From: Candidatus Saccharimonadota bacterium | GTDB lineage: Bacteria; Patescibacteriota; Saccharimonadia; Saccharimonadales; Saccharimonadaceae | Assembly: GCA_027450165.1 (NCBI GenBank) | Contig: DAIDKE010000001.1 | Coordinates: 70,373-134,372, forward strand | Direction of reading: 5' to 3' | DNA length: 64,000 nt | Shown here: positions 1,053 to 50,655 of the stretch, one piece after another | Numbering within the stretch: position 1 is the first letter of the stretch | Layout: every line of letters starts with the position of its first letter | Program-made: the position numbers and the translations under genes | Notes under the pieces: generated by a model | The model's input: the letters and a program-made list of their open reading frames with translations, nothing else | Databases searched by the model: none | What the model was told of the DNA's origin: nothing

Positions 1053-1742
1053 TTAGGGTTGTATTAAGTGTTTCGTGAAGCCAGCGGCAATCAGTTGCTC
1101 ATACGCGCCCCAAACCGCTTCGGGAATGTCTTGTTCGATTTGATAACCAAGTTTTGGATATTCTTTGATACGCTGGAGGTCGCCGACCATAATATTAATG
1201 ACTAAGTCTTTGGGCATGTCATCGGTGAAATACTCATCATAAGAAATCTCTGGTGACGTAACACTAATTTGCGTCTCACTGTCTGGCCATTGTTTTTTAA
1301 AAGTTGCGTAAGTTCGGCGTTCCATGTACGGTTTTTGAACTAGAATAAACGATGCAAAAACGTGGCCTAGTTTATGTAATAGTTCATTAGTAAAACGAAT
1401 GTTTTCGCCCGTATTGGTTGACTGATTTTCAATAATAATTTTATCCTCGGGAACACCGTTCGCCGTCAATATATCAGCAAAAACTTCTGCTTCTGGTTTC
1501 GTGAAGCGATCTTTCGTGAGCACACCAAAACCGCCCGACACGATTACCCACGGCGCATAGCCTTGCGCGTACAGCTCGGCCGCGCGTTCAGCAACCCTTG
1601 TGTCCAGACTACAAAGTACAAAAATCGCATCCACTGGGTGCAAATCTTGACGCATATGCATATAGTTCCAGATTGTTATCGCCAGTTCATCGATATTCAT
1701 AAAATAATCATAACCCAGTATTAATGGGCTGATAAGCCCCAC
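1053..1742 (-). CDS. DUF218 / YdcF (ElyC-SanA) family protein
   Basis: 229 aa with typical DUF218 core motifs (AIFVLCSLDTRVAERAAELY, WVIVSGGFG, STNTGENI). Overlaps the upstream gene by 22 nt. An alternative start is M15 at 1700. Confidence 0.65.
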   Translation of the reverse strand: MGLISPLILGYDYFMNIDELAITIWNYMHMRQDLHPVDAIFVLCSLDTRVAERAAELYAQGYAPWVIVSGGFGVLTKDRFTKPEAEVFADILTANGVPEDKIIIENQSTNTGENIRFTNELLHKLGHVFASFILVQKPYMERRTYATFKKQWPDSETQISVTSPEISYDEYFTDDMPKDLVINIMVGDLQRIKEYPKLGYQIEQDIPEAVWGAYEQLIAAGFTKHLIQP

Positions 1743-2629
1743 TTTGGCGGCAGAAAGATATCTAGTTTTTGCGGGGTTTTGGTAAATTTAGTTTTGATTT
1801 TTACCCGCGCGCTGGCAAGTTCCGGCCTGGCGGCCCGTAAATATTTATCGGTTTCACAAAAGATATTTTGACAATCAATGGCCGTTAGTTTGCGCCCAAA
1901 CAGACCATGAAAATCATAACCCAGGCGATCAAACTCTGCGTCTTGGTGCTCGACCATCCACATAATTACCTGTTCTGGAGTTAAGCCACCGGTGTTGAGA
2001 AAAACTTTTTGAATACCGCGCAACGCACCTGGGCCAGCTTTGGTAAAATCGTTTTCCGAAAAGTTGATATAGGCCGAATAGTTCAGATCGATCGCAATCT
2101 GATAAGCCATGAAGTTGCCAATCGACGGAAAACTGTGCAGCAAATTATATATTTCTTGCAGTGACTCAGCAGTTAGCAGCTTTTTGCCTAGATTTTGGCT
2201 AATAAACATATCTTTGAGTAATTCAATGTGCCCAAGGTATTTTTTAGTTTGGCCATAAATCGTGGGCGGCGCCACAATAAAAGCATGGGTATATAGTTTG
2301 CCGTTTTGCTCTTCGGCTGCTTCAAGCGCGTGGCGGAATTTGCCAGTCACTAGATCATTCATAACCGGTGCACGGCCTAGAAAATCCGCCACCGTCTGCC
2401 AAGTTTCAATCAAACTAAAAAGTCGAAAGGCTACAACCTGGAAAAGCCGATCTTCGGGCGTATTTTGCTCAACGTTATAACATACCTCGCGAATCATGTA
2501 TTGGCTTACTCGGTCGAGTGCCCGGTAGGCATTGCAGAATTTATACTCCCCAAAAATAGGATCATCCGTCCACGGTTCCGATTCACCACGGAGACGCTTT
2601 TCAAAAAATCTGCTGCCTCTCATAGGCAA
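1721..2629 (-). CDS. putative DNA base-hypermodification protein (aGPT-Pplase-like), 5' end displaced by a frameshift
   Basis: 302-aa ORF containing PWTDDPIFGEYKFCNAYRALDRVSQY. The expected N-terminal segment (MNKLRPRPETYDTYWYFAYERQQIF) lies in another frame at 2604..2678. It joins the main ORF if one T of the T6 run (2603..2608) is removed. Confidence 0.5.
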   Translation of the reverse strand: MPMRGSRFFEKRLRGESEPWTDDPIFGEYKFCNAYRALDRVSQYMIREVCYNVEQNTPEDRLFQVVAFRLFSLIETWQTVADFLGRAPVMNDLVTGKFRHALEAAEEQNGKLYTHAFIVAPPTIYGQTKKYLGHIELLKDMFISQNLGKKLLTAESLQEIYNLLHSFPSIGNFMAYQIAIDLNYSAYINFSENDFTKAGPGALRGIQKVFLNTGGLTPEQVIMWMVEHQDAEFDRLGYDFHGLFGRKLTAIDCQNIFCETDKYLRAARPELASARVKIKTKFTKTPQKLDIFLPPKWGLSAH

Positions 2630-2711
2630 AGTACCAATAAGTATCGTAGGTTTCCGGCCGAGGGCGTAATTTATTCATCACTTTATTTTTATCAGAAAGT
2701 CCGAAGATAAC

Positions 2712-2738
2712 AAAAAATGCCCCGTGAAGGGCATTTTT
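2712..2738 (-). terminator. rho-independent terminator downstream of tRNA-Arg(TCG)
   Basis: aaaaaatgccc-cgtgaa-gggcattttt: a 5-bp GC stem extended by A/T pairs, with U-runs on both strands. Confidence 0.55.
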
Positions 2739-2748
2739 AAGTTCAATT

Positions 2749-2825
2749 TGGTACGCCCGGCAGGATTCGAACCTGCGACCTTTTGGTTCGAAGCCAAACA
2801 CTCTATCCAGCTGAGCTACGGGCGC
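2749..2825 (-). tRNA. tRNA-Arg(TCG), CCA encoded
   Basis: Reverse complement is GCGCCCGTAGCTCAGCTGGATAGAGTGTTTGGCTTCGAACCAAAAGGTCGCAGGTTCGAATCCTGCCGGGCGTACCA. It folds as a cloverleaf with anticodon loop CTTCGAA. Confidence 0.9.
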
Positions 2826-4577: not shown

Positions 4578-5147
4578 ATGGCAAAAGGGCGTGGGTTTAC
4601 AATTATTGAACTGCTGATTGTGATGGCGGTGATGGCTATTTTGCTGGTCATTGGCGTTGTCGATGTCAGTAGCAGCCAGGTTCACGCTCGCGACAACGAG
4701 CGTAAAGCTGATGTTGAAACTTTAGCCACGGCGCTTGAAACTTTTTATGACGGTGCCTCTGGGACTCAGGGTCAATACCGCTACCCATCGACTTGTATGA
4801 TTCAGCTGCTTCATGCTGGCATTTACACCACCCTGCCAGATATTGACCAGAGCGCCCTGATTTCGCCAAGCAACACCGATGGCCCAGATGACACGTCCTG
4901 CACGGACACCAACCCGCCAGCCCAAAGCGGCGTTGTGATCAGTGTTGTGGCCGCCACCAACACCACGCAAACAACTAGTGGCGTTACACCCCAGCCATCG
5001 GGTATAAACGATATCTACGTTTACCAGCCGCTAGCTGCCGACGGCTCGTTGTGCGTCAGTGGCAGTACCGAATGCGTCAAATATAATATCTATTATTACC
5101 AGGAATCGGACAGCTCCGTTCATATGGTTACGAGTCGACATCAATGA
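4578..5147 (+). CDS. prepilin-type (type IV pilin-like) minor pilin
   Basis: N-terminal class III signal MAKGRG|FTIIELLIVMAVMAILL. Overlaps the next prepilin gene by 4 nt. Confidence 0.75.
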   Translation: MAKGRGFTIIELLIVMAVMAILLVIGVVDVSSSQVHARDNERKADVETLATALETFYDGASGTQGQYRYPSTCMIQLLHAGIYTTLPDIDQSALISPSNTDGPDDTSCTDTNPPAQSGVVISVVAATNTTQTTSGVTPQPSGINDIYVYQPLAADGSLCVSGSTECVKYNIYYYQESDSSVHMVTSRHQ

Positions 5148-7252
5148 TAAATAAATTAAGCCTAGTTAAATCATCTCAGACCAAAGCGCACGGTTTTACT
5201 TTAGTTGAAATTCTGGTTATTGCACCGATTGTTATCTTGGTCATCGGCGCCTTTATTGCCGTTACACTGTCAATGACCGGCGAGGTTCTGACGACCCGCG
5301 CCAGCGACACCTTGCTATATTCGGTCCAAGATTCGCTTAATCGCATGTCTAGTGACATTAGGGACAGCAATAACTTCTTAGCCACCAATAACGTCACACT
5401 TACCGCTCCGCAAGGTATCGATAATGGCACTGGCAGTTTCGTGAACGTTGGCGGAACCAATGGCCCGGAATTGATTCTAGATTCGACCGCCACCACCACC
5501 AACCCAAACCTACTCACCAGTCAACCAGACTACATGAAGGATTCGCCAAATGCCTGCACCAGCTCTGCGATCCAGCAAAACGCCACATTGCATTACAACA
5601 TCGTCTATTTCGTTAACAACAATACCTTGTATAGGCGCACACTCGCCGATTCCAATTTCTTGACCGCCGGTTGTTCTATACCTTGGCAGCGCCCGAGTTG
5701 TGCCAACGGTCAAATCGGCGCCCTGTGTAAAACGAACGACGAGGTGCTACTTACGAATGTCAGCAGCATTAGTCTGCAGGTTGACTATTACACCAGCCCT
5801 AACGACAGCAGTCCGGTGGCCGGCGCGACATCTGGCACAAATGATGTCCGCAATACAGCCCTGCAAACAACTAATACCGCCCAAATACAGCTAAGCGCCA
5901 CAACAACAGTTGCCGGCCACGATTTCACGCGCAGCGGTACTGCCAAGGCCGTTCGCCAATCGACCATAGCAACGTCGCAAACACCAAACCAGCTACCGGG
6001 CTACAATACTGTGCCTTCGGCACCGGTCATAACCGCCGCCTATGATTCGACAAGCGGAGTGACCTTCAACTGGCCAATGGTTTCACCGGCCGCCACTTAC
6101 ACTATTCAATATCAGCTTAATGGCGGCAGCTGGACAACGGCCAGTAGCAACACGACTAACACCTACTACAATCTGCCAATGACCACTATCTATAATGGTG
6201 AGACTATTGCCGTACAGGTCACCGCCAGCACCCAAGCCGGGTCGTCAACGGCCGGAACTTCGACGATTACGACCCCGTTATGGAACCGCTTTGACTACAC
6301 AAATGGCTGGCTCGATTATCCCGGTTATGCACAAGGTGGATACACCAAGACATCAGCGGGGCTCATTGTCTTAAGAGGATTGGTTATGAATACACTGTCG
6401 TCTGGTGCTATATCGTCAGTCATAACTGTCCTGCCACCGGCCTTCCGTCCGTCAGCAAGGCTTATATTTTACACCGCAACAAACAACTCAAGTACAGGGA
6501 ACGCACAAGGCAGGGCCGACATCGACGCTAGTGGAAACGTCATACCCGTGACCGGTGATGCTGGATGGTTCTCTTTGGATACTGTTGCTTACTTGCCAGC
6601 ATCGGCTGCCATGACGGCAGTTAGTACTTTCTATAATGGCTGGACAAACTATGGCGCGGGGTACGCTCCCATGCAATACGCTACTGACGGCGCCGGGCGC
6701 ACAGTTATAGAAGGTCTAGTTAACGGCGGGACCTACACGGACGGTACCCTAATTGCCGCTCCTCCGTCTAGCTTATTGCCATCCGCATACCAGCATATAG
6801 GCGAAGTCGGAGCCGGCACTACTTCAGGAATAGGCGTTAACGTTAGCGGCAGTGGTATATTATCTAAAGGCTATGGATTCTCATCTCCCAGTTGGCTGTC
6901 GACCAACGCCGTATTTTACCCCGCCTCCTCGGCTGCGTCTTGGATAAATTTAACACTTCAAAACGGCTGGGTTTATTTAGGTAATGGATTTTCAACACCC
7001 CAATACATCAAGGGGTCGGACGGCATAGTCCACCTTAAGGGCCTTCTTAGCAGCGGCACAACCACGAGTGGAACCATTGTTACGACTCTACCTGCAGGGT
7101 ATAGACCAAGTCAGCGATTACTCTACGCGTGTCTTTCTGCCGGTGCATTTTGTAGATTTGATATCTTGCCAACCGGAGAGGTTGAAACTATAGGAACCGT
7201 TAGTAATGCCTGGTTATCGCTAGACAATATTCACTTTTTGGGCGAACAGTAG
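5144..7252 (+). CDS. large prepilin-type protein with FN3 domain and three C-terminal repeats (candidate pilus-tip adhesin)
   Basis: 702 aa. Prepilin signal KAHG|FTLVEILVIAPIV. FN3-like segment PSAPVITAAYDSTSGVTFNWPMV...YTIQYQLNGGSW. Three ~100-aa repeats carry NGW-x-(N)Y-G...G-x-V-x-L-x-GL...LP-x-(G/A)-(Y/F)-RPS. Confidence 0.7.
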   Translation: MINKLSLVKSSQTKAHGFTLVEILVIAPIVILVIGAFIAVTLSMTGEVLTTRASDTLLYSVQDSLNRMSSDIRDSNNFLATNNVTLTAPQGIDNGTGSFVNVGGTNGPELILDSTATTTNPNLLTSQPDYMKDSPNACTSSAIQQNATLHYNIVYFVNNNTLYRRTLADSNFLTAGCSIPWQRPSCANGQIGALCKTNDEVLLTNVSSISLQVDYYTSPNDSSPVAGATSGTNDVRNTALQTTNTAQIQLSATTTVAGHDFTRSGTAKAVRQSTIATSQTPNQLPGYNTVPSAPVITAAYDSTSGVTFNWPMVSPAATYTIQYQLNGGSWTTASSNTTNTYYNLPMTTIYNGETIAVQVTASTQAGSSTAGTSTITTPLWNRFDYTNGWLDYPGYAQGGYTKTSAGLIVLRGLVMNTLSSGAISSVITVLPPAFRPSARLIFYTATNNSSTGNAQGRADIDASGNVIPVTGDAGWFSLDTVAYLPASAAMTAVSTFYNGWTNYGAGYAPMQYATDGAGRTVIEGLVNGGTYTDGTLIAAPPSSLLPSAYQHIGEVGAGTTSGIGVNVSGSGILSKGYGFSSPSWLSTNAVFYPASSAASWINLTLQNGWVYLGNGFSTPQYIKGSDGIVHLKGLLSSGTTTSGTIVTTLPAGYRPSQRLLYACLSAGAFCRFDILPTGEVETIGTVSNAWLSLDNIHFLGEQ

Positions 7253-7339
7253 TGAGGCTTCTTGTAAAAAGCTTGTGTTTATAAAATTAACCTTGTATAT
7301 TTGAAGCATAGGTAAAAAATTAGGAGGGCAATAATAGAA

Positions 7340-7918
7340 ATGGTATTTGGCAAACTTAAAGATAGAAGGCAAGATAGCGGCTTCACACTGGTCGAGCTTT
7401 TGATCGTTATCGTGGTGATTGCTATTTTGGCGGCCATTACGATTGTTGCCTATGGTAATATTTCGGCCCGAGCTAAGACCACCCAGGGCGCAACCGCAAC
7501 AGCTAACACGGTCAAGGTCGCCGAGGCAATTAACGCCGACAACTCAAAATATCCTGATCTTTATTCAGACCTTACGACCGGTTCAACATCAACTAAATTG
7601 CCTAGCGGCCTTACCGTAGTCCAACTCAATAACTACGCGACCGTTATTCCAGCTACGGCCACAGCACTAAGCACTCTGTTTGCGAACAGTACCACCGTTT
7701 TTGGTAGCACGGCCCCTAGTAGTGGCAACACAGTTGTCGTAGTGCCGATCTGTAGTGCTGCTGGCGCAGTCCAGGGTGGTGCCGTTTACGGTTACGACTT
7801 TACATCTCCAAGCACCAAAGTAAGCGTTTCTTACTACGGCAGCGTGAATGGATCGACTACTGTTAGCACCGGTTCTTACCCGAAAACAGTTGACGCCACC
7901 GCTAGCACCCACTGTTAG
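7340..7918 (+). CDS. type IV pilin (major-pilin candidate, copy 1)
   Basis: 192 aa. Signal DSG|FTLVELLIVIVVIAILAAITIVAYG. AGGAGG SD upstream. C-terminal Cys pair (PICSAAG ... STHC). Confidence 0.8.
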   Translation: MVFGKLKDRRQDSGFTLVELLIVIVVIAILAAITIVAYGNISARAKTTQGATATANTVKVAEAINADNSKYPDLYSDLTTGSTSTKLPSGLTVVQLNNYATVIPATATALSTLFANSTTVFGSTAPSSGNTVVVVPICSAAGAVQGGAVYGYDFTSPSTKVSVSYYGSVNGSTTVSTGSYPKTVDATASTHC

Positions 7919-7938
7919 TAGTTAACTTGCATCATTAA

Positions 7939-7972
7939 TACGACCGCTCTCTTGTGGGCGGTCGTATTTTTT
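7939..7972 (+). terminator. rho-independent terminator after pilin copy 1
   Basis: acgaccgc-tctcttgtg-gcggtcgt followed by attttttg. Confidence 0.7.
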
Positions 7973-8044
7973 GGACTTGTGTTTAGAGTTGCAACCTTGT
8001 ATATTTATAGCATAAGCAAAAACAATTAGGGGGCAGAATAAGAT

Positions 8045-8581
8045 ATGATTAATAGTAAACTTAAAGGCCGAAGCAGCAGCGGTTTTACACTGGTTGAGCT
8101 TTTGATTGTTATCGTGGTGATTGCCATCTTGGCAGCCATTACAATCGTCGCCTACGGCAACATTAGCGCTCGCGCCAAGACCACCCAAGGTTCAACAGCC
8201 GCCGCCAACGTAGTCAAGGTTGCCGAAGCAATTAACGCCGACAACTCAGCTTACCCTATCAACACAGCAGCTTTCGCTGCCGGGTCAACATCAACCAAGT
8301 TGCCTAGCGGTATTACACTGCAAGACCCAACAGGCACCGCTCCAACGACCGGTAACCTGAACTCACTAGCGGCCTTTGCTGCCGCCCCATCAAGCGGTAA
8401 CACTGTCGCTGTCGCATTGGTTTGTAGTGCATCTGGCGTCGCCGCTGGTGGTGCCGTCTACTGGTACGACTTTAGTACCCCAAGCACCATTCACGTTACC
8501 TACTTCGGTAGTGTTGGTGCCACAACCACCGTCTCATCTGCGTATCCGACGTTGGTCAAATGGGTCACTGCCGGTTGTTAA
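8045..8581 (+). CDS. type IV pilin (major-pilin candidate, copy 2)
   Basis: 178 aa. The N-terminal ~60 aa are nearly identical to copy 1 (SSG|FTLVELLIVIVVIAILAAITIVAYGNISARAKTTQG). C-terminal Cys pair (LVCSASG ... TAGC). Confidence 0.8.
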   Translation: MINSKLKGRSSSGFTLVELLIVIVVIAILAAITIVAYGNISARAKTTQGSTAAANVVKVAEAINADNSAYPINTAAFAAGSTSTKLPSGITLQDPTGTAPTTGNLNSLAAFAAAPSSGNTVAVALVCSASGVAAGGAVYWYDFSTPSTIHVTYFGSVGATTTVSSAYPTLVKWVTAGC

Positions 8582-24743: not shown

Positions 24744-25112
24744 ATGAAGATATATAAACAGCGCCGCGCTACGGGTTTTACGCTGGTTGAACTGATTTTA
24801 GTCATCGCTGTTATTGGTATCTTGGCGGCTATCACCATCATTGCTTATGGCTCCTGGAAGCAAAATACCGCTGCTAATGTTTTGAAAAGCGACCTGAATG
24901 GCGCTGCTGCTGCCATGGAAGACGCTCGCAACTGGGGCTCTGGTTATCCTACATCAGTTCCAACCAGCTTCAAGCCATCAGACGGCACCACCTTAACTGG
25001 GGGCAGCAGTGACGGCAAAACATTCTGCATTCAAGACACCAGCACAACCTATCCAACGCTAATTTTTCATCTTACAAACGGTGGATCAACCACCACTGGC
25101 GCCTGCCCTTAG
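24744..25112 (+). CDS. prepilin-type (type IV pilin-like) protein
   Basis: 122 aa. Signal RRATG|FTLVELILVIAVIGILAAITIIAYG. Confidence 0.75.
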   Translation: MKIYKQRRATGFTLVELILVIAVIGILAAITIIAYGSWKQNTAANVLKSDLNGAAAAMEDARNWGSGYPTSVPTSFKPSDGTTLTGGSSDGKTFCIQDTSTTYPTLIFHLTNGGSTTTGACP

Positions 25113-27677: not shown

Positions 27678-28367
27678 CTAAGCCGCTCCAAAAAATGTCT
27701 CGGTTGTAATCTGGTCGCTCGACACGCCGCAATCGACCAACTGCCGCCACATCGACTTTACAAAATCAGCCGAGCCGCAAACATAAAAACAATGCGTATC
27801 TTTGTGACTGACGGCGTCTTTTAAAATATCGATTCGCCGGTGCTTAGCGTCACTAGCGCCTGGCGCCCGGGTAATAAAATGATCAACCACAAAATTATCG
27901 TTCGCATCCGCCAGCGCTTGTAGCTCCCGGCCAAAAACCACGTCGCCCGGCGTGCGGTTACTATATAACAAACGGATTGGCCGGCCGGTTTGACGCATAG
28001 TCTCGTCTTGAATAACACTCCAAATTGGCGAAATGCCGGTTCCGGCAGCAATCGCTAAAATCGGTTCATCATCAAAAGCGTTGAACGATCCATACGGCTG
28101 GCTAATGGTCAGCTCTTCGCCAACTTTCAGCTCATGGAGCTTGCCCGAAAACAGGCCAATTTTCTTGACCGTAATCGTCGATTCGACCGCCCCGGGCACG
28201 CTCGACAAACTATAGGCCTTGCCCTCGGTCACATCGGTATCATCAAAATAAACTGTTATATACTGCCCCGCCCGATGCGTTAGCGCCTCGCCGTCCACCT
28301 TAAAACCAATCGTCACGGTATCTGGCGTATTGATAGTTCGACTGGTGATAACGGCTGTTTGCTTCAT
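27678..28367 (-). CDS. FNR-like FAD/NAD(P)-binding oxidoreductase
   Basis: 229 aa. FAD motif RAGQYITVYF...KAYSLSS. NAD(P) motif LAIAAGTGISPIWSV, plus YVCGS. 4-nt overlap with nrdG. Confidence 0.75.
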   Translation of the reverse strand: MKQTAVITSRTINTPDTVTIGFKVDGEALTHRAGQYITVYFDDTDVTEGKAYSLSSVPGAVESTITVKKIGLFSGKLHELKVGEELTISQPYGSFNAFDDEPILAIAAGTGISPIWSVIQDETMRQTGRPIRLLYSNRTPGDVVFGRELQALADANDNFVVDHFITRAPGASDAKHRRIDILKDAVSHKDTHCFYVCGSADFVKSMWRQLVDCGVSSDQITTETFFGAA

Positions 28368-29053
28368 CGCACTAAACAGTAATCAACGTACTGCTCCATT
28401 TGTTTACGGATATCTTCGAATTCCTCGTCGCTATAAGTAGTTTCGCGCCGAAAAGCCGGGCTTAAAGTTCGACCGCTGCGAAACTTTTGCAGTGCATAAC
28501 GCGACGCGCCGCGCAGCATCTCGCCAATGGCCTTAAAATCATCAACCGGAATCTGCGACTTCACAACCGTGGTGCGAAACTCATAATCAACACCCGATTT
28601 TTTAATCATCTCAATACTGCGCATAATCGCATCCATATCGATTGGGTAGGCAGCGATCATTTGGTATGAATCTGGCGTGCCCTTAATATCCATCGACACA
28701 TAATCGAGCAGCTTATCGTCGTACATCTGCCGCAGCATGTCCGGGTGCGTGCCATTGGTGTCTAATTTAATCGTAAAACCAAGCTGCTTGATGCTAGCAA
28801 TCAGCTGCGGCAGGTCGTCGTGAACTGTCGGCTCACCACCGCTAATCACCACACCCTCCAGTTTGCCGACGCGCGTCGCCAAAAAAGCTAGCACGTCGTC
28901 AACCGGAATGGCGTCTCCGTAGCGTTCTGGCAAGACAAGTTCAGGATTGTGGCAGTAGCCGCAACGCATATTACAGCCAACTGTGAAAATCACTGCACTG
29001 GCCTTGCCCGGGTAGTCAATTAAAGATACTTTTTGAACGCCGCCGATTCTCAT
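28364..29053 (-). CDS. nrdG: anaerobic ribonucleoside-triphosphate reductase activating protein (radical SAM)
   Basis: 229 aa. Radical-SAM cluster CNMRCGYCHNPE and SAM motif VVISGGEP. 4-nt overlap with nrdD. Confidence 0.85.
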   Translation of the reverse strand: MRIGGVQKVSLIDYPGKASAVIFTVGCNMRCGYCHNPELVLPERYGDAIPVDDVLAFLATRVGKLEGVVISGGEPTVHDDLPQLIASIKQLGFTIKLDTNGTHPDMLRQMYDDKLLDYVSMDIKGTPDSYQMIAAYPIDMDAIMRSIEMIKKSGVDYEFRTTVVKSQIPVDDFKAIGEMLRGASRYALQKFRSGRTLSPAFRRETTYSDEEFEDIRKQMEQYVDYCLVR

Positions 29054-31158
29054 AGCGCCTTAACGCGTGCTCGATCGACATCGATCTTCTTGCGCATATC
29101 AAACTCGGCACGTTTGCCGTTGTTCCAGCGGTGCGTAGGGGTTAGGAAGCCAACCACACGCGAGTAAACTTCACAGACTTCTTCACACTTCGGACAGAAT
29201 TCGTGTTCACCAGCCAAGTAGCCATGGTTCTTGCAGATACTAAAGCTTGGACTAAACGTAAAGTATGGCAAGCGGTAGTTAGTACAAACCGTTCGGACTA
29301 GCTTCTTCAGAATTTGCGGATCATTGATGCGCTCACCCAAGAAGAAGTGAATCACGGTGCCACCGGTGTACTTGGTCTGTAGTTCGTCTTGTAGTTCCAA
29401 AAGCTCAAACAAGTCATCGGTAAAGTTAACCGGCAGGTGAGTCGAGTTGGTGTAAAACGGCGCCGGCACATCTTTACCAATGCCGTTGGCAAAGTGCGCT
29501 TCAGGAAAGTCTTTTTGGTCGATCTGCGCCAAACGGTAAGTCGTACCCTCGGCTGGTGTCGCCTCAAGGTTATAGTTGTTGCCTGTTTCTTCCTGGAATT
29601 CAATCAGCTTGTCGCGCATGTAGTCCAGCACTTCTTCGGCAAACTTACGACCTTCATCGCTACCAATCGTTGTATCAAGCAGATTTTCGATCGCTTCGTT
29701 CATACCGACCAAACCAATGGTTGAGAAGTGATTCTTCCAATATTGGTCAAAGCCTTGCTTGATGTTGCGCAGATAGTACTTGGTGTACGGGTACAGCCCG
29801 GCGTCGGTCAATCGTTCCAAAGTTTTGCGCTTGATCTCTAGGCTCTCTTTGGCCATTTCCATCAAATCGGTCAGGCCGGCCATGAACTCTTCTTTGTTGT
29901 GTGCTTTCAGAGCTAAGCGCGGCAGGTTAATTGTTACTACGCCCACCGAACCGGTCATTGGGTTGGCGCCGAACAAACCACCGCCGCGGTATTCCAACTT
30001 GCGGTTGTCGATGCGCAAACGGCAGCACATCGAACGAGCATCCTCTGGGTTCATGTCGCTGTTAACGAAGTTCGAGAAGTACGGAATACCATATTTAGCC
30101 GAAGCTTCCCAAAGATTCTCAACCACCGGGTTATCCCAATCAAAATCCTTGGTAATGTTGTAGGTTGGAATTGGGAAGGTAAAGACACGGCCAGTCGAGT
30201 CACCTTCTACCATCACTTCGAGCAGCGCCTTGTTAAAGACATTCATCTCTTTTTGGTAGTCGCCGTAGTTGGTCTCTTGCATTTCACCGCCAATAATCAC
30301 CGGAATGCCAGCAAAGTATTCTGGCGGGGTCAAATCGAGCGTAATGTTGGTAAACGGTGTCTGAAAACCAACTCGTGTTGGCACGTTGACGTTAAAGATA
30401 AACTCCTGCAACGCCTGCTTGACCTCTTTGTGTGTCAGCCCGTCAGCGCGGATAAACGGCGCCAGTAAAGTATCGAAGTTCGAAAAAGCCTGTGCGCCAG
30501 CCGCTTCGCCCTGCAAGGTGTAAAAGAAGTTGACGATTTGACCCAGCGCCGAGCGTAAGTGCCTGGCTGGCTTACTGGAAATCTTGCCCTGAACACCGGT
30601 AAAGCCCTCACGTAGCAGGTCCATTAAGTCCCAGCCAACGCAGTAAACCGACAGCAAGTTCAAGTCATGAATATGGAAATCACCAGCCCGGTGTGCATCG
30701 CCAATTTCTTTAGGATAAATCTTGTCCAGCCAGTAATTCTTGCTGACCTCTGACGAAATGTAATTGTTCAGCCCCTGCAGCGAATAGCCCATATTGGAGT
30801 TTTCTTTGACCTTCCAGTCCAGATTGCCCAAATATGAGTCAACCAAATCAATCTGCATATTGCTGGTGATGTCACGTAGACGCTGGTGCTGGTCGCGGTA
30901 AAGAATGTAAGCCTTAGCCGTCTTGTTGTAGGTCGAGTTGATGAGTACATTTTCAGCAATATCCTGAATCTGTTCGACCGTCGGTACTTTTTCGGTCAGT
31001 TCGGTCTCGGCGCGCGAAATCACTTTATTCGCCAAACGCTTGGCGGTTGTTTCGTTGAATTCCCCTGTTGCCTCGCCGGCTTTGATCAATGCCGCTTCGA
31101 TTTTTGCGGGATCGAATTTGACGCGACGTCCGTCGCGCTTTTTGATTGAGTTGTACAT
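29050..31158 (-). CDS. nrdD: anaerobic ribonucleoside-triphosphate reductase (class III), with ATP-cone
   Basis: 702 aa. ATP-cone at the N-terminus (IKKRDGRRVKFDPAKI). C-terminal Zn-ribbon cysteines (CKNHGY...CPKCEEVC) and a glycyl-radical-like RVVGFLT. AAGGGGG SD upstream. Confidence 0.9.
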   Translation of the reverse strand: MYNSIKKRDGRRVKFDPAKIEAALIKAGEATGEFNETTAKRLANKVISRAETELTEKVPTVEQIQDIAENVLINSTYNKTAKAYILYRDQHQRLRDITSNMQIDLVDSYLGNLDWKVKENSNMGYSLQGLNNYISSEVSKNYWLDKIYPKEIGDAHRAGDFHIHDLNLLSVYCVGWDLMDLLREGFTGVQGKISSKPARHLRSALGQIVNFFYTLQGEAAGAQAFSNFDTLLAPFIRADGLTHKEVKQALQEFIFNVNVPTRVGFQTPFTNITLDLTPPEYFAGIPVIIGGEMQETNYGDYQKEMNVFNKALLEVMVEGDSTGRVFTFPIPTYNITKDFDWDNPVVENLWEASAKYGIPYFSNFVNSDMNPEDARSMCCRLRIDNRKLEYRGGGLFGANPMTGSVGVVTINLPRLALKAHNKEEFMAGLTDLMEMAKESLEIKRKTLERLTDAGLYPYTKYYLRNIKQGFDQYWKNHFSTIGLVGMNEAIENLLDTTIGSDEGRKFAEEVLDYMRDKLIEFQEETGNNYNLEATPAEGTTYRLAQIDQKDFPEAHFANGIGKDVPAPFYTNSTHLPVNFTDDLFELLELQDELQTKYTGGTVIHFFLGERINDPQILKKLVRTVCTNYRLPYFTFSPSFSICKNHGYLAGEHEFCPKCEEVCEVYSRVVGFLTPTHRWNNGKRAEFDMRKKIDVDRARVKAL

Positions 31159-41895: not shown

Positions 41896-42285
41896 ATGAA
41901 GCAAAAAGGCTTTACTGTTATTGAGTTGTTGTTTGTCGTGGTGCTGCTTGCCGGTGCCAGTATTTTGTTTTTTGTTCAAAAAAATAATATCCAAACCGCC
42001 GCTGCCGACAATCAGCGCAAGACGGCCATTAACGCGATCTACTACTCGCTTGAAGAGGTATATTACCCGGCCCACAAAGCCTACCCGCAAACCGTCAACG
42101 AAAAAGTCTTGCCATCAGTTGACCCTAGCTTATTTACCGACCCTAACGGCAAAAAGATTGGCGACGGCCAAAGCAACTATAGCTATAAACCAACCAACTG
42201 CACCGACGGCCAGTGCCAAAGCTACACCTTATCGACGACACTGCAAAACGAAGCCGACTACGTTAAGACAAATCGCAGCCACTAA
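41896..42285 (+). CDS. prepilin-type (type IV pilin-like) protein
   Basis: 129 aa. Signal MKQKG|FTVIELLFVVVLLAGASILF. Cys pair (TNCTDGQC). Confidence 0.7.
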   Translation: MKQKGFTVIELLFVVVLLAGASILFFVQKNNIQTAAADNQRKTAINAIYYSLEEVYYPAHKAYPQTVNEKVLPSVDPSLFTDPNGKKIGDGQSNYSYKPTNCTDGQCQSYTLSTTLQNEADYVKTNRSH

Positions 42286-49976: not shown

Positions 49977-50237
49977 CTAGTCGCCAAGTTCTCGTTGCAT
50001 TGATTGCTTAGATTGTTCAGCCCAACCCGAATCCTGTTTACCTTTTGCGATCTCGGCCAGCTCAAACGAGTACTCCGAAGCAGCAAAGGCTACACCATTG
50101 TCATCAAAGCCCGACCACTCTAATACTAATGCTGCTATCTTGTGTAACCGCTCAAGTGCGCCAGGATCGGTGGTTCGCTCAAGTAACGGCACAAGCTCTT
50201 TAGCAAATTGTCGTTGCTGTTCTCTGGTAAGTTCCAT
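49977..50237 (-). CDS. hypothetical protein (86 aa)
   Basis: ORF with GGAG-like SD context. No family recognised. Confidence 0.35.
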   Translation of the reverse strand: MELTREQQRQFAKELVPLLERTTDPGALERLHKIAALVLEWSGFDDNGVAFAASEYSFELAEIAKGKQDSGWAEQSKQSMQRELGD

Positions 50238-50326
50238 ATTTTCTCCTAATAACTTCAGGGATAATGAGCAGTTTTACACCATACTCGGGGTGGTATTACG
50301 ACCTAGGACAGGCCGTGACGGTTACT

Positions 50327-50566
50327 TCAGTGGCCAGGGCCGGTGTACTGACCGCGGTCGGTACCGTTGCCGTTCGGACCGTTGCCCGATCCGTAGTGGT
50401 CGTGATTGGCCGAGTCCATGAAGTTGCCCTCGCTCCGGTCACCATCACCGATGAGGGTCTCACCCTCGCGGTTCCCCCATCCGAACGCGACGGTGATGGG
50501 ATTGCCGGCCGAGTCGCTGCCACCCATGGGCTCGCTGAACCCGCCCTGGTGGTTACCGCTGCTCAC
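50327..50566 (-). CDS. small Gly/Asn/Asp-rich hypothetical protein in a GC-rich islet
   Basis: 79 aa. The GTG start is preceded by TTAGGAGGTAACC. Third codon positions are strongly G/C, and the patch is ~65% GC by hand count. No family recognised. Confidence 0.45.
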   Translation of the reverse strand: MSSGNHQGGFSEPMGGSDSAGNPITVAFGWGNREGETLIGDGDRSEGNFMDSANHDHYGSGNGPNGNGTDRGQYTGPGH

Positions 50567-50655
50567 GGTTACCTCCTAATGATCGTGGCATTCCTGCCAT
50601 TTCGGCGAGTCGCTCGCCGTAGCGAGGTCGCGTAGATTTGCTCGACCTACACCTA

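Follow-up and report, generated by a model that had tools for sequence, protein, structure and literature searches.

A solitary PF18723 gene with its reading frame broken at a T6 tract in a Saccharibacteria contig

The locus and its interrupted frame

The window is the whole 64-kb stretch of DNA that was analysed. The locus described here lies on its minus strand, and its features are listed in Table 1. It encodes a solitary member of Pfam family PF18723 (HMUDK_hel, formerly aGPT-Pplase clade 1), split into two pieces in different frames. Direct reading of the minus strand from the ATG at 2678 gives 25 codons, the last of which is TTT (2606-2604), and the next triplet is the stop. The T run at this point is exactly six bases long. 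The 302-aa ORF (1721-2629) is the continuation in the +1 frame, and an uninterrupted frame of about 320 codons is absent. The sequence-only reading had placed a +1 frameshift in this T6 run. Direct reading bears this out, and relatives are one T shorter.

Table 1. Features of the PF18723 locus (positions are those of the window)
Feature	Position	Strand	Basis
tRNA-Arg(TCG), immediately upstream	2749..2825	-	same tRNA precedes the gene in L001 and L002
Intrinsic-terminator-like hairpin and T run, 3' of the tRNA, 35 nt before the ATG	2713..2738	-	
Gene 5' piece: ATG and codons 1-25 (MNKLRPRPETYDTYWYFAYERQQIF), frame 0	2604..2678	-	sequence; N-terminal alignment with all relatives
T6 homopolymer (A6 on the + strand), one base in excess; T5 in relatives	2603..2608	-	sequence and relatives' contigs
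Premature TGA, frame 0; with the preceding Phe codon, a UUU-UGA "shifty stop"	2601..2603	-	sequence
Gene 3' piece, +1 frame: codons 26-318 and TAA; HhH-like motif (G187, D197), GPG 215-217, C274-E275-x-D-K	1721..2602	-	sequence, Pfam, alignment
DUF218 gene, downstream, 20 nt past the stop (overlaps if GTG at 1742 is used)	1053..1700	-	PF02698, 82 bits

When the two pieces are read through as one protein, the alignment with 12 relatives has no gap at the junction (...YWxFAYERQxIFExRLxGE...), and gap-free alignment also extends to over 6,000 homologs, 317-325 aa in length. With the upstream piece included, PF18723 scores 328.4 bits (2-280 of 281), against 302.2 bits (profile positions 17-280) for the 302-aa ORF alone. 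The upstream codons hold residues conserved in the family, namely R21 (83 of 86 diverse members) and W15 (72 of 86). Together, the conserved residues, the gain in Pfam score and the gap-free junction indicate that the upstream piece is part of the gene and not a chance frame. In the AlphaFold model it makes up most of a predicted helix, residues 10-29.

The DUF218 gene is probably co-transcribed with the PF18723 gene. This neighbor is not conserved: no homolog was found in L002 or at other loci, and L002 carries an MPG glycosylase gene instead. A second, weak hairpin with a T run (2629-2613) also resembles a terminator; it is absent in relatives and was taken as chance.

Family, predicted fold and conserved residues

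Membership in PF18723 is close to certain. The match of the read-through is full length, against a cutoff of 25 bits. Homologs number more than 6,300, essentially all of 317-325 aa with PF18723 as the only domain, and the search yielded 4,313 clusters at 50% identity. Salmonella phage ViI gp160 belongs to the family too, as does the M6-type gene adjacent to the kinase. ViI gp160 was called "aG/PT-PPlase1" (PMC5889632), and aGPT-Pplase1 is the label of the homologous gene in M6-like phages (PMC9476957).

The sequence-only reading had assigned the gene to aGPT-Pplase. In substance this call stands, under an older name, because PF18723 is the current name of aGPT-Pplase clade 1 (ViI gp160, SP10 gp186C and the M6-type gene). 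An HMM search with aGPT-Pplase models had been proposed, with withdrawal of the family call if none was hit. PF18723 matched; no model named aGPT-Pplase did so, and the clade 2 profile (ADDT, PF18724) had no match at E<=10. Withdrawal on that ground would have been misleading, since the family now carries another model name. NCBIfam returned no matches, and a sequence search of the PDB found no relatives.

The AlphaFold model (pLDDT 87, pTM 0.87) contains 15 helices, and the protein is predicted to adopt an all-alpha, helix-hairpin-helix (HhH), DNA-glycosylase-like fold. The best viral structural match in BFVD was gp186 of Bacillus phage SP10, a 5-hmdU DNA kinase fusion, with a TM score of 0.80. 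Other BFVD matches (TM 0.58-0.77) were the PhiW-14 homolog and further entries annotated as PF18723 or "Pplase1 clade 1". In the PDB, the best match was PaMx11 gp46 (8z2n; probability 1.0, TM 0.45-0.48), followed by HhH glycosylases.

All family-wide residues are present here: R21, F47, N49, R52, D55, G187, Q193, D197, G215-P-G217, G221, C274, E275, K278 and R281, each found in 76-86 of 86 diverse members. From the fold and these motifs, we infer that the intact protein would bind DNA and flip out a C5-substituted pyrimidine. The flipped base may enter a pocket lined by the invariant D197 and the C274-E275 motif.

Profile-profile comparison links the protein only weakly to clade 2. Local hhalign on the deeper profiles gave a pairwise E of 0.007 at a probability of 5%. 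The weak alignment is collinear and brings together the HhH glycine, an Asp and a conserved Cys that falls within one column of ADDT Cys247, the catalytic residue in gp46 (PMC11472151). In ADDT a metal-binding Glu/Thr accompanies this Cys. C274-E275-T276 is conserved here; however, the order of the motif is unlike that of ADDT and the alignment to the Cys247 region is weak. A shallow 13-sequence profile (Neff 1.8) run against a single ADDT sequence gave no signal, and the alignment from hhalign in global mode was meaningless.

Relatives in phages and in cellular operons

PF18723 genes of phages lie beside, or are fused to, 5-hmdU DNA kinase genes in thymidine-hypermodification clusters, and those of bacteria occur in nucleotide-centered conflict systems. 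For phage clade 1, the reference set was ViI gp160, the M6-like Pseudomonas gene beside the kinase (SN1_020) and the C-terminal half of SP10 gp186. The protein described here shares with them the Pfam family (328 bits here, 279 for ViI gp160 and 190 for the PAC7 homolog), the predicted fold (the match to SP10 gp186 given above) and the residues R21, D55, G187, D197, GPG and C274-E275-x-x-K. However, its identity to the phage proteins is only 25-32%. The phage genes adjoin genes for a P-loop 5-hmdU DNA kinase, ADDT, PLP and rSAM enzymes, Nmad5 and dUMP hydroxymethylase, whereas the gene here stands alone behind a tRNA, with none of these partners in the 64 kb, and its copy is frameshifted.

A search for partner genes elsewhere in the genome had been suggested. 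A working DNA-hypermodification pathway is not supported by the 64 kb: no kinase, hydroxymethylase or other partner was found there, and the set of kinase (PF18748/PF18747), dUMP hydroxymethylase and ADDT is absent from the window. In tblastn of the 64 kb with the phage 5-hmdU DNA kinase, thymidylate-synthase homolog, ADDT and Nmad5 as queries, no hit fell below E=0.3. PADLOC reported no defense-system match.

Clade 2 comprises the amino-acid:DNA transferases (ADDT), for example PaMx11 gp46, M6 gp51 and ViI gp247. It provides the best match among solved structures, with the same HhH-type all-alpha fold. The differences are that the protein here has C-E-T-D-K where ADDT has E-T-x-x-C-K, and that the two families are joined neither by a PF18724 match nor by more than the low profile-profile probability given above. 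Transferase activity has been demonstrated for clade 2 only; clade 1 is without demonstrated pyrophosphorylase or transferase activity, and M6 gp55 is dispensable in vitro (PMC8989533).

Among cellular systems, E. coli defense system DS-4 ("NTTI", DefensePredictor) combines a thymidylate-synthase homolog, a dNMP kinase, a PF18723 protein (WP_087900470.1), a TIR protein and Nmad2. DS-4 as a whole was validated experimentally against phages, so cellular PF18723 genes can belong to such systems (PMC13092281). Its PF18723 protein is likewise standalone and chromosomal, about 340 aa long, and shares the conserved D, C-E and K residues with the protein here. DS-4 is an operon of five genes; its other four members went undetected in the window.

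The Actinomycetota operon contains MazG-MazG_C(-Nmad1), a TylF-like methyltransferase and PF18723, with Nmad2 nearby, and belongs to the "nucleotide modification" systems of the Aravind type. Its PF18723 copies are the closest cellular homologs outside Saccharibacteria (57-64% identity to the protein here). Between other Saccharibacteria copies and those of Actinomycetota, identity reaches 77%, and the copies of the two groups interleave in the tree. Partner content differs: a MazG-like partner is present at 45 of 82 loci and the methyltransferase at 31 of 82; nearly all Saccharibacteria loci, and the window, lack both. In tblastn of the 64 kb, the DS-4 partners (thymidylate-synthase homolog, dNMP kinase, TIR, Nmad2), MazG-MazG_C and the TylF-like methyltransferase gave nothing below E=0.1.

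PF18723 is a large family without established function, with links to thymidine hypermodification in phages and to at least one validated defense system of E. coli. The solitary, strongly conserved Saccharibacteria copies offer a minimal one-gene setting for the question of what clade 1 does. For annotation, the gene should be labeled PF18723 / aGPT-Pplase clade 1, "frameshifted", and not be read as evidence that the organism hypermodifies DNA.

Origin of the extra T

The tract is T5 in 4 of 4 relatives: L001 and L002 (81-83% protein identity) and contigs X1 and X11 (about 91% and about 93% DNA identity), both of which are one base short at 2603. The ORF is intact at all 82 related loci. Against L001 and L002 the dN/dS was 0.05-0.06, and the gene has no second defect. 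Such a low ratio together with the lack of a second lesion means that the break is either very recent or not real. Public sequencing runs and contigs gave no same-strain coverage of the tract, as the same-strain fragments miss it; the diverged strains that cross it are all T5. A pattern scan of JGI metagenomes allowing T5 or T6 gave no match. Exact-product look-ups for the truncated protein, the 190-aa neighbor and the DUF218 protein found none on record. L085 (murB 90% cluster) stops at the tRNA terminator.

The reading we prefer, to which we give an even chance as a whole, is that of a solitary PF18723 protein with a putative base-flipping role, whose frame was broken after codon 25 by a genuine, very recent single-T insertion (T5 to T6) in this strain. 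As to the insertion by itself, we lean slightly, and with modest confidence, towards its being genuine and fresh. Ribosomes beginning at the true start would then stop once 25 residues had been made. The sole long product would begin at an internal start, which would cost it R21 and the greater part of helix 1; the gene is accordingly likely to be null or strongly hypomorphic. Occasional +1 slippage at UUU-UGA might still yield a little full-length protein; U-run "shifty stops" give low-level +1 frameshifting. The solitary gene is under strong purifying selection in the lineage, and its loss is therefore somewhat unexpected, which counts against a genuine mutation.

The serious competitor, which we rate a little short of an even chance, is an artefact of sequencing or assembly, in which the gene is intact with T5 in the organism itself and the sixth T was added by a homopolymer over-call in the consensus. 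A lone +1 in a homopolymer is the textbook form of consensus error, the gene is otherwise free of defects and under the strong constraint noted above, and T5 with an intact locus is found in every relative. The source is a 370,694-bp contig in an NCBI genome of an uncultured-type organism, and one homopolymer indel per 64 kb is also what would be expected of a lightly imperfect long-read assembly. Against this, the 64 kb contain no other broken gene despite 293 homopolymers of at least 5 nt, 77 of them of at least 6 nt. A mechanical screen raised 10 further homopolymer-frameshift candidates, all of which merge complete separate genes, for example DnaK with a CDP-OH transferase and an NrdG-like gene with an oxidoreductase. 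Nine complete genes syntenic with L085 match or nearly match in length. Comparison with near-identical independent contigs showed zero indel differences over 3.3 kb, a check of little power because it covers just 12 homopolymers of at least 5 nt. Current platforms do not typically err in the consensus by over-calling 5 as 6, and insertions at runs of 5-6 nt are uncommon on Illumina, HiFi and R10.

Whether freshly inactivated or mis-assembled, this is a gene of a known family, and the finding is an ordinary one. One accessory gene in one environmental genome carries little weight by itself.

It is improbable that the T6-UGA junction is functional, that is, a lineage-specific +1 recoding site or slippage switch that would throttle a solitary PF18723 enzyme of Actinomycetota origin in a Saccharibacteria-like (CPR) bacterium, the enzyme acting alone on DNA such as 5-hmU-containing phage DNA and dispensing with the kinase or MazG partners of other loci.

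Slipped-strand phase variation, in which the T tract would be an on/off contingency switch of a DNA-modification or defense function, was raised by the sequence-only reading and is now disfavored; we regard it as very improbable. A frameshift in a homopolymer, close to the 5' end of an accessory gene of the conflict type, is the layout usual for phase-variable genes, and the tract does differ in length, T6 in this strain and T5 in relatives. However, the tract is neither long enough for frequent slippage nor kept across relatives. T6 is unexceptional among the runs of at least 6 nt in the window, and the ancestral T5 simply spells the conserved Ile-Phe codons (ATT TTT). More distant homologs encode other residues at these positions, for example IL, VF or AF, which are incompatible with this T run; the tract is therefore not under maintenance. 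All four relatives carry the tract in its ON state, and none of the contigs showed heterogeneity.

Also very improbable is a programmed +1 ribosomal frameshift like that of prfB (RF2), with a pause at UGA and a slip of tRNA-Phe to the overlapping UUU yielding a regulated full-length protein. The sequence A-UUU-UUU-GA places UUU in the P site before UGA, and tRNA-Phe, on moving from T3T4T5 to T4T5T6, would re-pair perfectly and restore the conserved ...QIF-EKRL... exactly. In this respect it resembles CUU-UGA of prfB, where a slippery P-site codon precedes UGA and +1 re-pairing is likewise perfect. In prfB, +1 shifting is stimulated by a Shine-Dalgarno (SD)-like element at roughly 3 nt. In contrast, 9 nt separate the P-site codon from the only SD-like element upstream of it here, GAGAGG. 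Downstream, no structure was found, and the shift site is not conserved among orthologs, all relatives being T5 and in frame.

A sense reading of UGA, which some CPR lineages use (code 25), was considered and rejected. Frame 0 meets TGA, TGA and TAA within about 20 codons, and the housekeeping genes of the window are full length under code 11.

Structure of the interrupted gene

The minus-strand gene next to tRNA-Arg(TCG) is a damaged member of a known family, PF18723. Frame 0, opened by the ATG at its 5′ end, encodes MNKLRPRPETYDTYWYFAYERQQIF and is closed by a TGA directly after a T run of exactly six. The sequence then continues in the +1 frame as a 302-aa ORF, which bears out the frameshift proposed by the sequence-only reading. 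The read-through protein, with the shift removed, aligned with 12 relatives without a gap over the junction (residue numbers below refer to this protein). Its PF18723 score was 328.4 bits (profile positions 2-280 of 281), compared with 302.2 bits (17-280) for the ORF alone. The upstream piece also carries the family-conserved residues R21 (83 of 86 diverse members) and W15 (72 of 86). Given the gap-free junction, the gain in score and these conserved residues, the two pieces are, by sequence comparison, one gene.

UGA as a sense codon was ruled out, since TGA, TGA and TAA are met in frame 0 within about 20 codons. A 6-bp hairpin directly 5′ of the T6 run is a weak terminator-like motif within the coding region; it is not present in the close relatives L001 or L002 and was taken as chance.

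Translation in frame 0 yields only 25 residues. The longest other product would start at an internal ATG and is probably non-functional, because it would lack near-invariant R21 as well as most of helix 10-29 as predicted. Incidental low-level +1 slippage could make the allele leaky.

Coordinates of the features described in the text (window positions unless a related locus is named)
Feature	Position	Strand
5′ piece, from ATG at 2678	2604-2678	-
T6 run	2608-2603	-
TGA closing frame 0	2603-2601	-
302-aa ORF, +1 frame	1721-2629	-
Internal ATG	2623	-
6-bp hairpin	2613-2629	-
tRNA-Arg(TCG) and its terminator, then PF18723 gene, then DUF218 gene	1053-2825	
Same region in L001	L001:150-1653	
Same region in L002	L002:2383-4008	
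Same region in L085	L085:1-122	
Actinobacterial operon, examples	L081:3408-4985; L044:4997-5971; L015:7024-7653	
Type IV pilin/pseudopilin-like genes	4578-8581; 24744-25112; 41896-42285	
NrdD, then radical-SAM activase-like gene, then FAD/NAD oxidoreductase	27678-31158	-
Two overlapping ORFs	50098-50635	+

Cause of the break

Four relatives have T5 at the site: L001, L002 and two contigs of about 91% and 93% identity from sequencing runs X1 and X11, respectively. The ORF is intact in 82 of 82 related loci. Beyond the shift, 292 codons show dN/dS of 0.05-0.06 against L001 and L002, without a second lesion. It follows that the break either arose very recently or is not real. The exact strain was not found across the tract in the sequencing runs, contigs and metagenome records searched.

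We screened all 293 homopolymers of at least 5 nt in the window for one-base edits that merge ORFs. The T6 site and ten others were recovered; each of the ten others fuses genes that are separate and complete. Against L085, an independent 25-kb contig, nine complete syntenic genes have matching or near-matching lengths. Near-identical independent contigs showed zero indels over 3.3 kb containing 12 homopolymers of at least 5 nt. These results point to an accurate assembly and thus modestly favour a genuine mutation; we give a recent insertion at T6 an even chance. The same accuracy counts against an artefact in which T5 was over-called as T6, but a single error left in the 64 kb is still quite possible, and this explanation keeps a substantial probability, short of even.

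Phase variation through slippage of the T tract, one of three causes left open by the sequence-only reading, is very improbable. The tract is not long and does not stand out among the window's 77 runs of at least 6 nt, and it consists of codons for a conserved Ile-Phe where more distant homologs encode other residues. Programmed +1 ribosomal frameshifting at UUU-UGA has the right local geometry and would give back ...QIF-EKRL... exactly, but relatives do not share the shift site and no stimulator lies at the proper spacing; this reading is likewise very improbable.

Family identity and function

A Pfam profile search to E≤10 returned no family besides PF18723, except a chance DUF match. The PHROGs match was phrog_2396 (function unknown), and NCBIfam and PADLOC searches of the gene gave no match. 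Pfam now names PF18723 HMUDK_hel and PF18724 ADDT, so searches for 'aGPT-Pplase' models return nothing.

Five lines of evidence identify PF18723 as the family once called aGPT-Pplase clade 1. By tblastn, 485 phage records contain homologs of 25-32% identity, among them ViI-like Ackermannviridae, M6-like Pseudomonas phages and Bacillus phages. The ViI homolog Vi01_130c (note "orf00160") scores 279 bits with PF18723; ViI gp160 is listed as "aG/PT-PPlase1" and SP10 gp186 as a kinase(N)-PPlase1(C) fusion (PMC5889632 Table 3), hence the present Pfam name. In the M6-like phage PAC7 the cluster order is ADDT, PLP enzyme, rSAM, P-loop 5-hmdU kinase (PF18748), PF18723, Nmad5 and thymidylate-synthase homolog, in agreement with the order published for phage SN1: aGPT-Pplase2, PLP, rSAM, kinase, aGPT-Pplase1, Nmad5 (PMC9476957). 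The AlphaFold model of the read-through (pLDDT 87, pTM 0.87) matches the SP10 "5-hmdU DNA kinase" at TM 0.80, and also the PhiW-14 homolog and two entries labelled "Pplase1 ... clade 1". Among solved structures its best match is the clade 2 enzyme PaMx11 gp46 (probability 1.0, TM 0.45-0.48), with HhH DNA glycosylases ranking next.

On this evidence the protein truly belongs to clade 1, and its kinship with clade 2 (ADDT) is distant and structural, no more. A profile-profile alignment links the two clades weakly (pairwise E 0.007, probability 5%, collinear over 226 columns); it pairs the HhH glycine and an Asp, and brings the conserved Cys within one column of ADDT Cys247. The aGPT-Pplase call made from sequence alone was right under the older nomenclature, and the PF18723 match does not contradict it. 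For phage M6, a 2018 paper gives gp51 as PPlase1 and gp55 as PPlase2 (PMC5889632 Table 3), whereas a 2021 paper gives gp51 as clade 2 and gp55 as clade 1 (PMC8989533 Table 1). The SN1 and PAC7 gene orders agree with the latter.

Demonstrated activity is confined to clade 2, an amino-acid:DNA transferase acting on 5-phosphomethyl-dU via a catalytic Cys (PMC8989533, PMC11472151); M6 gp55 was dispensable in the reconstituted reaction (PMC8989533). E. coli DS-4 ("NTTI") is a validated five-gene anti-phage defence system (PMC13092281) that encodes a thymidylate-synthase homolog and a dNMP kinase together with PF18723, TIR and Nmad2 proteins. NCBI names its PF18723 member "putative DNA base hypermodification protein". 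In a set of 86 diverse members that takes in ViI gp160 and the DS-4 protein, D197 is invariant, G187, Q193, G215-P-G217 and G221 are near-invariant, and C274, E275 and K278 each occur in 80. Conservation of this degree argues for an enzyme, not a passive DNA-binding module. Recurrent partners are real or predicted kinases: a P-loop kinase is fused to PF18723 in SP10 and adjacent in M6-like phages, the dNMP kinase gene adjoins it in DS-4, and in Actinomycetota MazG-MazG_C is fused or adjacent. The protein is probably of a base-flipping HhH type and would either act on a C5-substituted pyrimidine or present one.

Fusions of PF18723 among P0143, P0137, P0151, P0222, P0238 and P0256 involve MazG + MazG_C, NADAR + N6/N4 DNA methylase, MT-A70 methylase and glycosyltransferase. 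Many members are ~550-600 aa, with an N-terminal extension of ~240-300 aa that carries no Pfam annotation.

Genomic setting

The nearest labelled homologs are from Saccharimonadales MAGs (63-64% identity), and the window looks Saccharibacteria-type in its homologs and gene content, which includes NrdD/NrdG and many genes resembling type IV pilins. In the closest relatives, L001 (83% identical) and L002 (81%), the gene likewise follows tRNA-Arg(TCG). On the upstream side, synteny with both L002 and L085 is kept at 85-93% and takes in murB, a 190-aa gene and pilins. The downstream genes differ: DUF218 in the window, MPG (PF02245) glycosylase in L002 and NHL-repeat pseudopilin in L001. L085 stops exactly at the tRNA terminator. 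With the tRNA constant and the downstream genes variable, this is compatible with a strain-variable spot beside the tRNA.

In Actinomycetota (L006-L082), PF18723 lies in a conserved same-strand operon. MazG + MazG_C (PF18722) + Nmad1, fused or as split genes, were found in 45 of 82 loci; 31 of 82 have a TylF-like methyltransferase, and PF18723 comes after these genes. Nmad2 (PF18753) is often just downstream on the opposite strand, and TIR and SLOG genes lie close to the operon. No partner of actinobacterial or phage type was detectable in the 64-kb window, which therefore lends no support to a DNA-hypermodification pathway in this organism, the function implied by the sequence-only reading.

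Saccharibacteria copies are almost always solitary. In an NJ tree without support values (L001-L082 plus the window gene), Saccharibacteria/Patescibacteria copies are split into at least 8 separate clades, with Actinomycetota copies interspersed, and several of the former have their best match, at 73-77% identity, in Actinomycetota. This pattern suggests that the gene was transferred repeatedly between the phylum of the epibionts and that of their usual hosts. Of greater value than the frameshift itself are these solitary, strongly constrained, interleaved copies, together with the conserved operon of Actinomycetota.

Elsewhere in the window, many type IV pilin/pseudopilin-like genes have N-terminal methylation motifs, one of them encoding 702 aa; they fit a Saccharibacteria-like epibiont lifestyle. 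In an otherwise empty 0.9-kb gap adjoining tRNA-Lys, two ORFs of 107 and 123 aa overlap on one strand but in different frames; neither has a Pfam match, and they could be a second split gene or simply non-coding sequence. The anaerobic ribonucleotide reductase NrdD (702 aa, ATP-cone + NRDD), the radical-SAM activase-like gene and the oxidoreductase are all intact.
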